From a virus (taxonomy: Duplodnaviria > Heunggongvirae > Uroviricota > Caudoviricetes): a stretch of DNA of 31,518 nt. The notes under the pieces are model-generated. The model had not been told where the DNA came from. It ran no database searches and saw nothing but the letters and a program-made list of their open reading frames with translations. The position numbers and the translations under genes are program-made. Shown here one piece after another: positions 1-31,518 of this stretch (position 1 is the first letter of the stretch; every line of letters starts with the position of its first letter). Where the stretch lies: the IMG/VR virus record IMGVR_UViG_3300002498_000057. One strand, given 5' to 3'.

Positions 1-410
1 CAAGCTCAGTAGGGGGTGATTTTAGTTGCCGCTAGAACAAGCTAACTTCACTTCAAGGAGCCCCAAGCACAGTAGGGGGTGATTTTTATTGTGACAATAA
101 CAATCTAACTTCGCTTCAAGGAGGCCCAAGCTCAATAGGTGGTAGTTTTTATTGTTACAAGAACAATCTAACTTCACTTCAAGGGGCCCCAAACACAGTA
201 GTGGGTTATTTTAGTTGTAGCAGTAACAATTTAACTTCACTTCAAGGGGCCCCAAGCTCAGTAGGGGGTGATTTTAGGTGTAGCTATAACAATCTAACTT
301 CACTTCAAGGAGCCCCAAGCTCAGTAGGGGGTGGTTTTAGTTGTAGCTATAACAATCTAACTTCACTTCAAGGAGCCCCAAGCTCAGTCAAGGGTAATTT
401 TTATTGTGAC
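1..410 (+). repeat. Coding tandem repeat, 63-bp unit, at least 6 copies
   Basis: The core CTTCAAG recurs at 51, 114, 177, 240, 303 and 366 (exact 63-nt period). Confidence 0.95.
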
Positions 411-482
411 AATACCAATAAAACATTTACACAACAGTAGGTCAAACAGATATGTAAAGTTAAAGGGCGTATATTTGTATAA
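3..482 (+). CDS. 3' part of a leucine-rich-repeat-like phage protein (21-aa repeats LTSLQGAPxxVGGxFxCxxNN); 5' end lies outside the window
   Basis: Frame is open from position 3 to TAA 480-482 if TAG is sense (TAG at 33-35 and 438-440). The C-terminus KTFTQQ[E]VKQICKVKGRIFV matches the usual tail of this repeat family (recalled). Confidence 0.85.
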
Positions 483-501
483 GATAAAGGAATTAAAATA
501 A

Positions 502-924
502 ATGAATAAAATAAGATAGATGGCATTAGATATTGTCAGTGAATTATTAAAATAGAGTAAATAGAATATTGTTAATATGTCATAGAAGAATAGTATACTA
601 AGTTCTATTATATAGAATAATAAAGGAATAAATAGAATGATAGATAAAATAAAACAAATAATAGTATGACTAAATAAGAATAAAGATAAAATGGCGCATA
701 CTTTAATTGGATCAATAATAACAGGTATAATACTATTAGTATTTGGTTTAACAACAACTACAATATTATGCTCACTTTGGTTTATATTTGCAATAGCTAT
801 AGTATGGTAGATAATAAATAAAAAATTATACGATAGTAAAATATGTAAGTTGGATATATTATTTACTTGTATTGGCAGTGCATTAGTAATAGTATATACC
901 AGTTTAATGTTTTTAATACATTAA
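502..924 (+). CDS. Small multi-pass membrane protein (hypothetical; possibly holin-like)
   Basis: SD AAAGGA at 486-491, ATG 502, TAA 922-924. Hydrophobic C-terminal part DKMAHTLIG...AIAIVW[E]II...KLDILFTCIG. A second in-frame ATG at 637 has its own AAAGGA at 622-627. Confidence 0.7.
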
Positions 925-957
925 TTAAAATAAAATAGCTTTTACAATATTTTTTAG

Positions 958-969
958 ATATTTATATAT
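958..969 (+). promoter_or_regulatory. ATATTTATATAT motif, putative phage promoter
   Basis: Intergenic, upstream of ORF 995. The identical 12-mer occurs at 5509, 23370 and 25315. Confidence 0.5.
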
Positions 970-994
970 ATAAAGATTATTTTGGAGAAACAAT

Positions 995-1249
995 ATGTAG
1001 AATACAACAATAGTATTAAATTAGTTATAGAAAAAGAAAATAGATGAACTACAAAGAAGCACACACCAAATTATATCAGATTTTGGACAATTATCTATTA
1101 CAAAGATTTAGTTATTTAATGCATAGCAATAGTTAACTAAGAAATATTAGTAGTTACAGAAATAGATATAGAAATTTAATATATAGCTTAAAAATAAACA
1201 TGGGTAGGGAGTTATTGACTTTTAGAATGGATTATACGTTAAAGAATAA
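995..1249 (+). CDS. Small conserved hypothetical coiled-coil protein (84 aa)
   Basis: SD GGAGA, ATG 995, TAA 1247-1249. Translation M[E]NTT...FGQLSITKI[E]...KHG[E]GVIDF[E]NGLYVKE resembles the recalled KYGEGxIDLETG motif seen in tail regions of related phages. About 13 TAG codons in 84. Confidence 0.75.
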
Positions 1250-1256
1250 ATATTTA

Positions 1257-28017: not shown

Positions 28018-28020
28018 TGT

Positions 28021-29085
28021 ATGGACATTAATATATTAGCAAAATTTAAGAAATAGTTATAGTAGCAAAAAAAAGTTACTAGAAATATTAATGATAACAT
28101 ATTAATAGTAGATGGATTAAATTTATTTCTTAGAGGATATTGTAGTAGTCCAGCTTGTACTCCAAATGGTAATCATATTGGTGGTATTGTTGGATCTCTT
28201 AAATCGTTGGGATATGCAATAAACTTATTAAAACCAACTAGATGTATAATAGTATTTGATGGGTAGGGTGGATCTCAATATAGAAAAAAAATATATCCAT
28301 AGTATAAATCAAACAGATCTGGCAGTCCTAGAAATCCATTTAATAGAAGTACAGCTATAGATTATAATGCTGTAGATTAGTAGTAGAACAGAAAGTATCA
28401 ATTAGTAAAATTTATATAGCTATTATAGTTTTTACCAGTAACATGTATTGTAATACCGCATATATAGGCAGATGATACAATTGCATATATATGTTAGAGA
28501 TATAAATAGACTTCAAAAATTACAATAATGTCCTGTGATAAAGATTTTATTCAATTAGTTGATAAAAATGTTAATGTATGATCACCTATTAAAAAAATAT
28601 TATATACAGTTAACAAAGTTATATAGTAGTATAATATTCATCCAAATAATTTTATAAATTATAGAATTATTTAGGGCGATCAGTCTGATAATATTCCTGG
28701 AATACATGGTATTGGATATAAAGGTATTATTAAATTCTGGGGTAAATTATTACTTAATTAGAATTATAAATAGTATGAATAGTTATTAAATTAGGTAGTA
28801 TAGAATAATAGTAAAAAGATATAGTAGTTTAGAAATAGTAAATAGATATATATGAGAAATTATAATCTTATGCAATTAGCTAATGTTAATATTCCATCTT
28901 CAGTTAAATTAAATATTATATAGATGTTATAGAAATTAAAAATCCCAGTATTTAGCGGGCATAGATTTATATTATTATCAACAAAATAGCAATTACAATC
29001 TCAATTTGGTGATATATAGAAATTCTTATAGTCGTTTAGATATCTTACTGGATTTGCAAATAAATTTAATTCTACTTTAACTTAA
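28021..29085 (+). CDS. 5'-3' exonuclease / flap endonuclease (T4 RNase H / Pol I 5'-nuclease family), 354 aa
   Basis: Motifs LIVDGLNLFLR, IVFDG, YP[E]YKSNR, I[E]ADDTIA, SCDKDFIQL, GDQSDNIPGIHGIG. Confidence 0.93.
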
Positions 29086-29120
29086 TTGTGATAATTTCGT
29101 TATTGCAGTATATAATAAAT
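29083..29120 (+). promoter_or_regulatory. Putative promoter TTGTGA-N19-TATAAT upstream of ORF 29150
   Basis: TAATTGTGATAA at 29083-29094 and TATAATAAAT at 29111-29120; same spacing as the copy at 21981. Confidence 0.55.
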
Positions 29121-29149
29121 ATATATTTAAAATATTAAGGGAGACTATA

Positions 29150-29512
29150 ATGACTAGAGATGAGATATTTACTAAACTAATGGAGTTAGCTATACTAATT
29201 AACAATAACAAAAAGAAAAGTCTTTATGAAAAAAGACAAATTGTAGTGCTTAATACTGAGTTGAAAAAGACTAAACTTAAATATGAATTGGATGTTGCAA
29301 ATGAAGTTGATGCTGCTGGTAAACCAAAATACAGTAATGCAGATAAGCGTAGTGTTGAAGTAGCAAATAGATTAGAAACTGATAAAGTATATTGTGAAAA
29401 AGAAAAATTGAGAGATGCAAAACAAGAAGCAATAGAAGATATAGAAATTGAAGTGTCTAATGATGTTTATATGTTTAGAGCCTATGAAGCTTTTGCAAAT
29501 TTCAAAGAATAA
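29150..29512 (+). CDS. Hypothetical coiled-coil protein (120 aa) with no TAG or TGA codons
   Basis: SD AAGGGAG, ATG 29150, TAA 29510-29512. It is the only complete gene that is also intact in the standard code. Confidence 0.85.
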   Translation: MTRDEIFTKLMELAILINNNKKKSLYEKRQIVVLNTELKKTKLKYELDVANEVDAAGKPKYSNADKRSVEVANRLETDKVYCEKEKLRDAKQEAIEDIEIEVSNDVYMFRAYEAFANFKE

Positions 29513-29529
29513 ATAAAAAATAGTAATAT

Positions 29530-29567
29530 AAGAGACATCTATATTAACTTATATAGATGTCTCTTTT
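29530..29567 (+). terminator. Rho-independent terminator
   Basis: Perfect 15-bp stem AAGAGACATCTATAT / ATATAGATGTCTCTT with a 6-nt loop, followed by Ts. Confidence 0.8.
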
Positions 29568-29589
29568 ATAATAGGTATGGAGATTGTAT

Positions 29590-31518
29590 ATGAAAGGTCA
29601 TAAAAATGAATAGCTTAAAATTATATTTACGCCAGAATAGGATTTACTTGAAAAGCAAAATATTTGTCAATTTAAACATTTACCATCATTTGATAAAGAT
29701 GGAATTATAATACAAAAACAAAATAATAATAATGAAGCACTTAATATATAGCAGATATTATAGCGTAAAAAAATATTATAGCAAGCAATATTAAATTTAA
29801 AAAATAAATTTGTTGGAATAGATTAGGTAATAGATAAAATATCTCAACAAATTTATACTTGGTATTGTATGCCATAGTTATTATTAAAACCAGTTGTATT
29901 GTGTTTATGAGGAATTACTGGAATTGGCAAAACTGATTTAGTTAGATCTTTAGTAAAATAGTTAAGTATGCTAAATAGTTACATATAGGTTCAACTTGGA
30001 AAATCCGGGTAGACTGACAATTTACAATGAATAATGTAGTCTTCTGGTGTAGGATCAGATGAAATTGGTATTTTACTGTTAGACTAGGTGCAAAGATTTA
30101 GAACAGTTGATGAAGATAATAAATAGATTAGGTAGGGGTCAACTTTTGGTGATATATGGTAGTTACTAAGTGATGGTAAATTTGCATATAATACTAAAAC
30201 AAAGGAAGGTATTTTATGGACAATTAAGGAATTAGTTTCTGATGTTGAATAGGATTAGCTCAACAGATTAAATATAGCTCAGACTACAACGAAAAAAAAT
30301 AAGTCAAAATAGTATAAAATGAATACTTGAAGGGCCAAAACAATACAATCAATTATCAGAAATTAGTATACGATACAATAGATTTGTAATATGAAAATCA
30401 ATGATGTATTATAGAAATTATGGGAAGTATATGAAAATCAAAATGTAATATAGCCCGAATCATATACTAAATTATTAATAATCATTAGCGGTAATTTAGA
30501 TTAGGCATACCATTTTGCAGAATGGGTTTCATAGGCAGATATTAATCCAGATATTATATATTAGCATAGTAAAAAGATAAATATTATCAATATTAAAAAT
30601 GCCTTATTATAGAGATTTAAGCCATAGCAAATAGCTAGATTTGGTAACAATCAAATAATTTACTCATCACTAAACACGGCTAATTATAATACACTTATAA
30701 ATAAAAAGTTAGTATAGTTATCAGATAAAATATATGATAAATTCAAAATACTTGTAAAATTTGATAGTTCAATAAATTAGGTTATTTTTAAAAATGGAGT
30801 ATTTCCTACACAGGGTGTTAGACCAGTATTTTCAACTATTTCAATAATTATTTAGTCTAATATTCCAAAATTTTTAGAAGTTGCGTTACTTAATAATGTC
30901 GACAGTATTGAAATATATTATAAAGATAATACAATATATTCAACTATAAATAATCAATAGGTAGTATTATCAGTGTGAGAAGTTCTTGAATAGATTCGAA
31001 ATAAAAAGAATATTTGTATAGATAATAAAAGATTAACAAGTATACATGAAGTTGGTCATGCAATAGTATATTCATTATTATTTAATGCTGCCCCAAATCA
31101 AATTACAATAAATACTACTAATTAGGGTATATAGGGGTTTGTACAATAGACTGATATTGTATTATGTAAAGATTATATTTATAAACTAGTTGCAGTGTGT
31201 ATGGCTGGATATTCAGCAGAAAAGATTGTGTTTGGCCATAATTCTATATCAGGTGGAGCGTAGTATGATATATAGACGGCAACAAAGTATATAGCTAGAA
31301 TGATTAGATATTATGGTATGTAGAAAACCATTGCATATACAAAGACTTCAACTATTGATCATACAGATCAAGCTGTAATTAAGGATGAAGAATTAAACGA
31401 ATAGATATAGAATATTATTGCTAAGCAAACAGAAGTAGCAAAAGATCTGATATTGGATAATATGTAGCTGTATATAAAATTAGTATAGTATTTGTATGAT
31501 AAAACGGCAATAAATTCT
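29590..31518 (+). CDS. AAA+ ATPase fused to an M41 (FtsH-like) zinc peptidase domain; 3' end lies outside the window
   Basis: Walker A L[W]GITGIGKT, Walker B LLLD[E] (TAG 30085-30087), DIW[E]LLSDG, SGNLD[E]AY, RFKP[E]QIARFG, HEVGH at 31045-31059, MAGYSAE. Confidence 0.85.

Follow-up and report, generated by a model that had tools for sequence, protein, structure and literature searches.

The window analysed here is a stretch of 31,518 nt, given as one strand, of the Caudoviricetes virus record IMGVR_UViG_3300002498_000057. The phage contig from which it derives is 256,585 bp (257 kb) long, has a G+C content of about 25% and originates from a hydrocarbon metagenome; we read 105 kb of it. As part of the explanation that best fits the data, we interpret the window as spanning two modules, for tail and for replication, of a T4-like jumbo phage (Table 1).

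Table 1. Genes of the window with positions, strand and in-frame TAG and TGA codons.
Feature	Position	Strand	Remarks
5'-truncated ORF, LRR-type repeats	3..482	+	2 TAG; TAA end
ORF, 140 aa	502..924	+	6 TAG, 1 TGA; TAA end
ORF, 84 aa	995..1249	+	13 TAG; TAA end; 50-nt overlap with next ORF
ORF, 185 aa	1200..1757	+	14 TAG, 2 TGA; TAA end
Tail sheath, 734 aa	1788..3992	+	16 TAG, 4 TGA
ORF, 166 aa	4046..4546	+	14 TAG; TAA end
gp19-type tail tube	4642..5136	+	6 TAG, 2 TGA
ORF, 82 aa	5175..5423	+	5 TAG, 1 TGA
T4_baseplate family protein	5569..6333	+	15 TAG
Small ORF, 68 aa	6359..6565	+	6 TAG, 1 TGA
Tail protein, 989 aa, weak tape-measure match	6570..9539	+	43 TAG, 11 TGA
Structural protein, 872 aa	9541..12159	+	38 TAG, 16 TGA
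ORF, 623 aa	12146..14017	+	25 TAG, 6 TGA; neighbouring TGA-TAG at 13919-13924
ORF, 87 aa	14028..14291	+	6 TAG, 2 TGA (tandem, 14181-14186); TAATG junction to next gene
ORF, 666 aa	14291..16291	+	42 TAG, 7 TGA
ORF, 685 aa	16293..18350	+	37 TAG, 6 TGA
Amidase_2-domain protein, 853 aa	18343..20904	+	38 TAG, 12 TGA; 57% identity to orthologue in relative L100
ORF, 352 aa	20919..21977	+	21 TAG, 0 TGA; public copy shows Q at every TAG
DNA_pol_A-related protein, 436 aa	22041..23351	+	25 TAG, 3 TGA
Small ORF, 76 aa	23399..23629	+	4 TAG
ORF, 139 aa	23650..24069	+	5 TAG, 1 TGA
gp32-type single-strand DNA-binding protein (SSB)	24128..24925	+	18 TAG, 2 TGA
RecA/UvsX N-terminal piece, then 14-aa intein N fragment	24995..25315	+	
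TnsA/endonuclease-like ORF, 460 aa, within split recA gene	25376..26758	+	20 TAG, 3 TGA
Intein C fragment (125 aa) and RecA/UvsX C-terminal piece	26758..28017	+	27 TAG, 3 TGA
5'-3' exonuclease (FEN)	28021..29085	+	29 TAG, 1 TGA
Code-neutral gene, 120 aa, possibly UvsY-like	29150..29512	+	0 TAG, 0 TGA, 16 GAR; TAA end
FtsH-like AAA+/M41 protease	29584..31518, on contig to 31677	+	42 TAG, 4 TGA

Under code 11 only 10 ORFs in the window reach 80 aa, and not one exceeds 120 aa; when TAG and TGA are taken as sense codons, the + strand tiles with genes. ORFs of at least 100 aa cover 12% of the window under code 11, 23% under code 4, 62% under code 15 and 95% when TAA is the only stop, the highest cover in the coding-density comparison proposed in an earlier, sequence-only reading of the window. 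That reading's claim of 28 + strand ORFs with TAA as the only stop also held: the final list is 97.2% coding and TAA ends all 27 genes that finish inside the window, the remaining one running past its edge. SD-like 4-mers lie ahead of 19 of the 27 starts but of only 5% of the remaining ATGs; TAATG junctions occur at 14291 and 26758, and the base after TAA stops is T in 56% of cases against a background of 28%. The base following TAG shows the same pattern as that following GAA. Together the 28 genes contain 521 in-frame TAG codons (51 per 1000 codons), 89 TGA, 189 GAA, 24 GAG and 38 TGG, the exception being the gene at 29150-29512, which uses neither recoded codon and in this respect corrects the earlier reading.

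The meaning of the two codons was voted on in columns with at least five standard-code homologues. Among 123 TAG columns in the window the plurality residue was E in 51, K in 13, D in 10 and Q in 6, with the log-likelihood of E ahead of K by 33.8 and of Q by 38.1; E was found in 16 of the 26 TAG columns with a conservation of at least 80%, and in nine of the 11 invariant ones. The 13 TGA columns gave W in seven, F in three and G in one, while all sense codons with good sampling retained their standard meaning. The sequence-only reading had assigned Glu to TAG and Trp to TGA and had named the vote of E versus Q as a check; within the window this vote favours E. All 17 of the coordinates it cited are in-frame TAG or TGA codons. 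Glu was upheld in every homologue at RecA 27211 (the position of E. coli E96; 33/33), FEN 28465 and 28300 (61/61 each), baseplate 5602 (8/8), sheath 1830 (9/9) and the FtsH Walker B site 30085 (120 homologues). Trp was upheld at SSB 24497 (30/30), tail tube 4903 (8/9) and sheath 3429 (9/14). The conserved Glu claimed at 6097 and 5056 failed, homologues having Thr and Ser, respectively, and homologues were too few for a vote at five sites, those of the amidase (20401), the endonuclease (26381), the WW pair (14181-14186) and PWEI (13919-13924). Across the FtsH-like gene, E occupies seven of eight conserved TAG columns, Walker B among them, and W is present in 98% of homologues at TGA 29908; W is also the plurality at TGA 11764, 11884 and 12052 in the 872-aa structural protein.

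The adjoining RNR gene, compared with 99 standard-code homologues, agrees: E is the plurality in 40 of 74 TAG columns (Q in three) and is found in 12 of 13 conserved ones, and W in 13 of 14 TGA columns. Reading TAG as E yields a composition of 7.2% Glu and 3.0% Gln, as opposed to 2.1% and 8.1% with TAG as Q, and Trp makes up 1.24% of residues when TGA is counted versus 0.37% when it is not. UAG serves as the main Glu codon, at about 70% of Glu positions, and does so across every functional class in the window, including early replication genes.

Two relatives from other samples, L100 and L102, share both recodings. Codon pairs between them and this phage include 178 TAG-TAG, 57 TAG-GAA and 24 TAG-CAR, and 16 TGA-TGA and 21 TGA-TGG; the chief exchange partner of TAG is GAA, and that of TGA is TGG. 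The recoding of TAG alone extends to a wider phage clade, a further correction to the sequence-only reading. This clade comprises the distant relatives L108 (NCBI GCA_036681025.1) and L109 (SRR31904132), in which TAG is read as Glu and genes end in TGA, together with 19 further RNR clusters. Like this phage, its members align TAG to Glu, have low G+C and carry the same replication module with an intein-bearing RecA, and the recoded RNRs group as one clade; unlike this phage, about 40% of their genes end in TGA and in-frame TGA is absent. We infer that TAG=Glu arose first, in the wider clade where TGA stays a stop, and that TGA=Trp was gained later in the sub-lineage holding this phage, L100 and L102.

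Potential decoding machinery lies on the same contig, where tRNA(CUA) and tRNA(UCA) are encoded 14-17 kb beyond the window. The tRNA(CUA) has U11-A24, U13.G22, A46 and a 4-nt variable loop, matching the E. coli tRNA-Glu identity set, though these marks also occur in other tRNAs of the phage and so are not unique; it has a G1.U72 pair, and its BLAST matches, to tRNA-Lys and tRNA-Gln of phages, were all weak. The tRNA(UCA) has G73. The 105 kb read yielded 28 tRNAs, none of which is a tRNA-Glu(UUC) or a tRNA-Trp(CCA); either may lie in the rest of the 257 kb. A bacterial-type glutamyl-tRNA synthetase (GluRS; 348 bits on TIGR00464) is also encoded; its C-terminal anticodon-binding part has lost alignment to known GluRS, and its gene contains no TAG or TGA as against 23 GAR and 6 TGG. 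Within the 105 kb read we saw no TrpRS and found no release-factor-neutralising function; a release factor may lie in the unread remainder.

All of these independent tests (column votes, RNR, composition, exchanges between relatives, and the tRNAs with GluRS) agree that TAG is Glu, TGA is Trp and TAA is the sole stop. The codon meanings and the ending of every gene in TAA are shown by sequence comparison, without protein-level evidence. How the code is implemented is inferred. Roughly a third of ORFs in the 105 kb (32 of 103) contain neither TAG nor TGA, despite 393 GAR and 69 TGG codons, and the code-neutral gene at 29150-29512 has orthologues in two relatives that are neutral too. This avoidance points to a code switch run by the phage in a host that would read both codons as stops. 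Genes without TAG or TGA, that for GluRS among them, would be expressed first by the host machinery, alongside transcription of the tRNAs; phage GluRS would then load Glu onto tRNA(CUA) and host TrpRS would load Trp onto tRNA(UCA), whereupon the recoded structural and replication genes would become translatable, with termination at UAA remaining possible through either host release factor. The model leaves unexplained how RF1 and RF2 would be kept off some 50 UAG/UGA codons per gene; 20-70 TAG per gene require near-complete suppression, and nothing we found accounts for it. Moreover, replication genes are recoded as heavily as late genes, which better fits a host sharing the code. Taking these points together, we consider the three-part code with its phage-run switch very likely (roughly 0.85), again without evidence at the protein level.

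The alternative that survives best, though we consider it unlikely, is that UAG=Glu and UGA=Trp belong to the host bacterium's own code, to which the phage merely conforms, just as code-25 phages conform to that of Absconditabacteria. In its favour are the use of TAG as main Glu codon in all functional classes, early replication genes included, the absence of any trace of selection against release-factor action in the base after TAG, and the difficulty of full suppression against active RF1 and RF2. It gives no reason, however, for the 32 neutral ORFs, which include GluRS and a gene neutral across three diverged phages, nor for a phage that brings its own tRNA(CUA), tRNA(UCA) and GluRS, and no relative was found among 185,579 species genomes.

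We regard it as very improbable that TAG encodes glutamine (table 15) alongside TGA=Trp. Public gene calls use Q for these genes, Gln is the sole phage meaning of TAG reported (10.1101/2021.08.26.457843), and the best BLAST match of tRNA(CUA) over most of its length includes phage tRNA-Gln (E=4e-3). Against this, Q is rarely the plurality in either the window or RNR columns, catalytic carboxylates (RecA E96, FtsH Walker B, FEN metal ligands) are encoded by TAG, and Gln would amount to 8.1% and Glu to 2.1% of residues. Furthermore, TAG is exchanged more often for GAA, which takes two mutations, than for CAG, which takes one, and the phage tRNA-Gln(UUG) differs from tRNA(CUA) in acceptor stem and discriminator base. 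Similarly remote is an ambiguous UAG, mostly Glu but in part subject to RF1 termination or GatCAB-type conversion to Gln, giving a mixed proteome. Many bacteria form Gln-tRNA by amidating Glu-tRNA, and a Glu-charged suppressor could serve as substrate; the lack of a release-factor neutraliser in the 105 kb read also fits. Yet at 20-70 TAG per gene, a termination rate of just 5% per codon would all but abolish full-length protein, GatCAB picks tRNA-Gln by a U1-A72 pair that tRNA(CUA) lacks, and Glu rather than Gln occupies the conserved TAG columns. An artefact, be it misassembly, a systematic error in base calling or an element that has decayed and lost its function, is all but ruled out: although every assembly of the contig comes from one 2013 sample, the ENA, JGI and Logan assemblies are identical in sequence, 178 TAG and 16 TGA codons are conserved in position in relatives that come from separate samples, open frames run to as many as 989 codons, and the classic TAAT context surrounds the TAA stops.

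The phage recodings in the preprint of Borges et al. (10.1101/2021.08.26.457843) are TAG=Gln, TGA=Trp and TGA=Gly, and only singly, as the sequence-only reading had stated. The further inference of that reading, that the combination appears undescribed in bacteriophages, held as well: within the full-text literature searched, we found no report of TAG=Glu, or of its combination with TGA=Trp, in any phage or bacterium. Table 15 phages (crAss-like, Lak, Garnet/Topaz and others; 10.1101/2021.08.26.457843; Peters et al. PMC9523058) resemble this phage in having in-frame TAG, a phage tRNA(CUA), and code-change machinery and some genes that both lack the recoded codon, and public callers apply table 15 to both. 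Separately, public gene calls mistranslate the genes of this phage, placing Q at TAG. In contrast to table 15 phages, TAG here is Glu rather than Gln, makes up 5% of all codons as the main Glu codon in replication and late genes alike, and is joined by reassignment of a second stop, TGA, and by a GluRS. Table 4 phages (Agate, Jade; 10.1101/2021.08.26.457843) likewise read TGA as Trp via a phage tRNA(UCA), and Jade phages are similar in keeping a synthetase and tRNA in a standard-coded operon. In those phages, however, TAG remains a stop, strengthened in some by a carried RF1, whereas TAG is sense here, such that neither release factor could be boosted, and the 105 kb read showed no TrpRS. Both codon meanings recur in the Blastocrithidia nuclear code (NCBI table 31), which has TGA=Trp and TAG=Glu, with TAA as terminator. 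That code is eukaryotic, also reads TAA as Glu and works through changes in eRF1 and tRNAs, while this phage has SD sites and no sign of TAA as sense; we conclude that the resemblance is convergent.

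Under table 11, ten ORFs in the 31,518-base window reach 80 aa, the largest being 120 aa, and when TAG and TGA are both taken as sense codons long ORFs fill its + strand. A comparison of coding density across codes had been proposed as a check by the sequence-only reading, and was run here as the share of the window under ORFs of at least 100 aa. This share was 12% with code 11, 23% with code 4 and 62% with code 15, and was highest (95%) with TAA as the sole stop. Our final list contains 28 + strand genes (97.2% coding), of which the last is cut by the window edge and the other 27 terminate in TAA, so that the gene count of the sequence-only reading held. 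The 521 in-frame TAG and 89 in-frame TGA codons are spread over 27 of these genes, no gene in the window terminates in TAG or TGA, and the sheath, tube, RecA, FEN, gp32 and FtsH domains are whole only if both codons are read through. One further ORF, 29226-29516, was discarded as spurious because it overlaps the conserved gene 29150-29512.

Signals at the gene boundaries can also be described. Shine-Dalgarno-like 4-mers lie upstream of 19 of 27 starts, as against 5% for other ATGs, and two TAATG junctions occur in the window. Across all window gene ends, the base 3' of the TAA stop is T in 56% of cases versus a background of 28%, a bias that constitutes the classic strong-termination context. 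The base following in-frame TAG resembles that following GAA, and T is not avoided there.

Pfam matches in the window comprise sheath, gp19 tube, T4 baseplate, Amidase_2, PolA-related, gp32, RecA, FEN and FtsH-like protease families, and this gene set identifies the window as the portion of a T4-like phage that carries its tail and replication genes. The truncated first ORF consists of ~60-nt repeats that match LRR families only weakly (LRR_4, E=5e-6). Two further ORFs lie in different frames with a 50-nt overlap; the first carries 13 TAG in its 84 codons, and the start assigned to the second is provisional, with a frameshift also possible. Precomputed Pfam hits extending to 105 kb along the source contig include DnaB, ribonucleotide reductase (RNR), DnaK, DnaJ, EF-Ts and Ro60, together with three RNA ligases, RtcB, a SIR2 protein, an anti-Pycsar-like lactamase-fold protein and IS607/TnpB-type elements.

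The recA/uvsX gene is broken at the P-loop. Its N-terminal piece ends in GLEG and is followed by a 14-aa intein N fragment (CVTEETLIEIFIEE) and a stop; a free-standing 460-aa TnsA/endonuclease-like ORF comes between the pieces, and a 125-aa intein C fragment ending in HN is joined to SGKS and the remainder of RecA. The arrangement resembles a naturally split intein whose N piece is very short; metagenomic UvsX and TerL genes are known to carry atypical split inteins of such a type. In L100, a syntenic relative from another sample, recA/uvsX is uninterrupted.

Positions of the principal features (those beyond 31518 are on a window scale, the window numbering being extended along the source contig)
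Feature	Position	Remarks
Truncated first ORF	3-482	
Overlapping ORF pair	995-1757	
Tail sheath	1788-3992	
Tail tube	4642-5136	
gp32 (SSB)	24128-24925	
Split recA/uvsX	24995-28017	
FEN	28021-29085	
FtsH-like AAA+/M41 protease	29584-31518	continues to 31677
tRNA genes (28)	38455-67917	past window
tRNA(UCA)	45578	14.1 kb beyond window end; same contig
tRNA(CUA)	48844	17.3 kb beyond window end; same contig
GluRS, 448 aa	95756-97102	TIGR00464 gltX_bact match

The central claim of the sequence-only reading was that TAG encodes Glu, TGA encodes Trp and TAA alone terminates; the observation is confirmed, and the interpretation is supported by column votes, composition, the RNR gene and relatives. For the column voting, which that reading had suggested be carried out for each codon separately, TAG and TGA were masked as X in the window proteins, which were aligned by tblastn against 94 IMG/VR loci with similarity to the sheath and FEN genes; nearly all of these loci use the standard code. 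Substitution profiles were derived from codons of unambiguous meaning in these alignments. Five or more homologues covered 123 TAG columns, in which the plurality fell to E in 51, K in 13, D in 10 and Q in 6, and the log-likelihood placed Glu ahead of Lys by 33.8 and of Gln by 38.1. Where columns were at least 80% conserved, E was found in 16 of 26, and in nine of the 11 that were invariant. The 13 TGA columns of the window gave pluralities of W (7), F (3) and G (1), with Trp 8.7 log-likelihood units above Phe, and W was the plurality at all three further TGA columns of gene 9541-12159. A tally over all 64 codons found no other well-sampled codon departing from the standard.

Individual genes give the same assignments. 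Against 120 homologues, the FtsH-like gene has E at seven of eight conserved TAG columns, including the Walker B position 30085 (100% E), and W in 98% of homologues at TGA 29908, while TAG 27211 aligns with E96 of E. coli RecA. The RNR large-subunit gene, 3 kb beyond the window, contains 74 TAG and 14 TGA codons; compared with 99 standard-code homologues, its TAG columns are E in 40 and Q in 3, the conserved ones are E in 12 of 13, and its TGA columns are W in 13 of 14. In both the window and RNR, then, voting at TAG favors E and not Q. Reading TAG as E gives an overall composition of 7.2% Glu and 3.0% Gln, as against 2.1% and 8.1% when it is read as Q, and Trp stands at 1.24% counting TGA and 0.37% without it. 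Of 17 specific TAG and TGA sites that had been cited as conserved Glu or Trp, ten were confirmed, most being invariant in homologues. Two proposed Glu sites (6097 and 5056) failed, as Glu is not conserved there, and five had too few homologues to vote, among them the amidase SIGI-E site; a PDB search with the amidase region gave no match.

The source contig (ENA ERZ27315036 k141_100919, 256,585 bp) derives from a hydrocarbon metagenome, and 74 kb downstream of the window were read. JGI and Logan contigs from the same metagenome match it at 100% identity across 6,079 and 1,313 bases, respectively. Two syntenic phages from other samples, L100 (ERZ27262922/SRR7760391) and L102 (ERR7015315), tile solely with TAA stops. 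Between this phage and these two relatives, TAG was paired with TAG 178 times, with GAA 57 times and with CAA/CAG 24 times, and TGA was paired with TGA 16 times and with TGG, its main exchange partner, 21 times. The excess of GAA matches synonymy, because TAG is two mutations from GAA and one from CAG, and since these pairs involve relatives from other samples, a sequencing or assembly artefact can be set aside. No relatives of gp32 or the sheath were found in species genomes, and gene 20919-21977 had one relative alone among 5.8 billion proteins.

The TAG=Glu meaning also extends to a wider clade. Among the 120 RNR homologues, 21 carry Q at 12-32 of the 74 TAG sites of this phage and have an inverted composition, with 7.5% Q and 4.4% E versus 2.2% and 7.8% in the rest. 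These public predictions (listed under P0002-P0020, P0034, P0035, P0071 and P0100) are TAG=Glu phage genes rendered with TAG=Gln, and in a tree with E and Q masked they form one clade with the RNR of the window phage (SH-like support 97). Two phages of this clade, L108 (NCBI GCA_036681025.1) and L109, contain 343 and 304 in-frame TAG codons that align to Glu, with no column showing a Q plurality, and TGA ends seven of 21 ORFs in L108 and nine of 20 in L109. Because TGA keeps its ordinary role as a stop in both, the reach of TAG=Glu by itself exceeds that of the double recoding. We conclude that TAG=Glu is the older and wider change, and that the line leading to this phage, L100 and L102 later acquired TGA=Trp.

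There is no tRNA gene in the window itself. Beyond it, the standard-anticodon tRNAs among the 28 cover 18 amino acids, all but Glu and Trp, and the 105 kb read showed neither tRNA-Glu(UUC) nor tRNA-Trp(CCA), with ~150 kb of the contig lying outside this coverage. The tRNA(CUA) has U11-A24, U13.G22, A46, a 4-nt variable loop and A73. In E. coli tRNA-Glu, these D-arm, A46 and variable-loop features make up the 'augmented D helix'. Its acceptor stem and discriminator base are unlike those of the phage tRNA-Gln(UUG), and the tRNA(UCA) resembles bacterial tRNA-Trp in having G73, G2-C71 and G3-C70. However, the Glu-type marks also occur in two other phage tRNAs and BLAST typing failed, so that the tRNA evidence is supportive and not decisive. 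By BLAST, tRNA(CUA) matched phage tRNA-Lys and tRNA-Gln only weakly and gave no informative hit in E. coli, and tRNA(UCA) had no match; the 94 IMG/VR loci contained no tRNAs usable as references, and a search of viral_contigs for the D-arm and CUA pattern found nothing.

Two other meanings for these codons were considered. Were UAG decoded as pyrrolysine, the tRNA should have a short D loop and only three nucleotides in its variable loop, and TAG should fall at variable or Lys-like positions. ARAGORN labels tRNA(CUA) as 'Pyl', a label resting on the anticodon alone, and the molecule folds as an ordinary cloverleaf whose 8-nt D loop contains GG and whose variable loop has 4 nt; on this shape and the placement of TAG at catalytic Glu sites, we reject pyrrolysine. 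TGA=Gly is rejected by G pluralities in one of 13 window and none of 14 RNR TGA columns.

The phage also encodes a glutamyl-tRNA synthetase (GluRS), which scores 348.3 bits on TIGR00464 (cut-off 290), carries HIGN and KLSKR motifs (HIGH/KMSKS), and matches PDB GluRS structures to 1e-67. The TIGR00464 match ends at model position 372 of 470 and the PDB alignments end near residue 323-338 of 448, and the last ~110 residues do not align to any known GluRS anticodon-binding domain. No close relative was present in viral_contigs. Its gene contains no TAG or TGA, with 23 GAR (GAA/GAG) and six TGG codons.

This absence of recoded codons is shared with a wider class of genes. The 105 kb read yields 103 ORFs of 90 aa or longer. 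In the 71 that are recoded, TAG accounts for 65% of Glu codons; the other 32 are code-neutral, having 393 GAR and 69 TGG yet no TAG or TGA, and include GluRS and gene 29150-29512. Gene 29150-29512, the sole code-neutral gene of the window (16 GAR), has orthologues in L100 and L102 that are neutral too. An Atlas structure search gave it a UvsY-like lead (TM 0.80, family on 13% of cluster members); it is possibly a recombination mediator, and we have no explanation for its staying code-neutral.

From the code-neutral genes alone, we infer that the host, which is unknown, reads TAG and TGA as stops rather than itself sharing the phage code. We propose a phage-run switch, the model of Borges et al. 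(10.1101/2021.08.26.457843) for single recodings, in which code-neutral genes would be translated first in a standard-code host, and tRNA(CUA) with GluRS, and tRNA(UCA), would then open the recoded genes. How RF1 and RF2 would be excluded at 20-70 such codons per gene is unexplained, and the 105 kb read, which omits ~150 kb of the contig, showed no release factor. A bolder reading, towards which we lean by a narrow margin, is that the GluRS with a remodelled anticodon-binding domain and a tRNA-Glu(CUA) form a self-contained natural orthogonal pair, which together with a tRNA-Trp(UCA) would rewrite two stops within one infection of a standard-code host, leaving UAA as the sole stop while RF1 would be blocked at UAG and RF2 at UGA by some unidentified factor. 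If true, it would be the first case of a phage imposing a code in which two stops are reassigned, and also the first UAG=Glu in the prokaryotic world.

The known range of phage codes is widened in two ways, through the UAG=Glu meaning and through two reassigned stops per genome. Gene callers relying on tables 4, 11, 25 and 15 are unable to translate this phage, and public proteins of its clade have Gln at every TAG, catalytic glutamates included. A termination puzzle is also raised, as both bacterial release factors meet sense codons that they recognize. The GluRS and tRNA(CUA) are a candidate natural orthogonal amber-suppressor system, and the nested spread of TAG=Glu first and TGA=Trp later offers an example of a code evolving step by step.

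An October 2026 paper on prokaryotic translation tables gives tables 4, 11 and 25 plus archaeal UAG=Pyl and no others, and our partial search of full-text literature found neither a phage or bacterial UAG=Glu nor a doubly recoded phage, an absence that is not proof of novelty. Table 15 differs from the present code in that TAG columns here are not Gln and TGA is not a stop. Table 4 has TGA=Trp in common with this phage but retains TAG as a stop, and table 25 differs in the amino acid, TGA here not being Gly. Table 31 (Blastocrithidia) shares both TGA=Trp and TAG=Glu, but it is a eukaryotic nuclear code in which TAA is also Glu, whereas each of the 27 complete genes of this phage window terminates at TAA, with SD sites, a TAAT context and little space between genes. 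The closest likeness in kind is to recoded phages with their own tRNAs, whose in-frame stops in conserved genes, matching suppressor tRNAs and neutral code-change machinery are all present here. The finding is therefore phage stop-codon recoding of a known kind, with UAG=Glu and the reassignment of two stops as its new elements.
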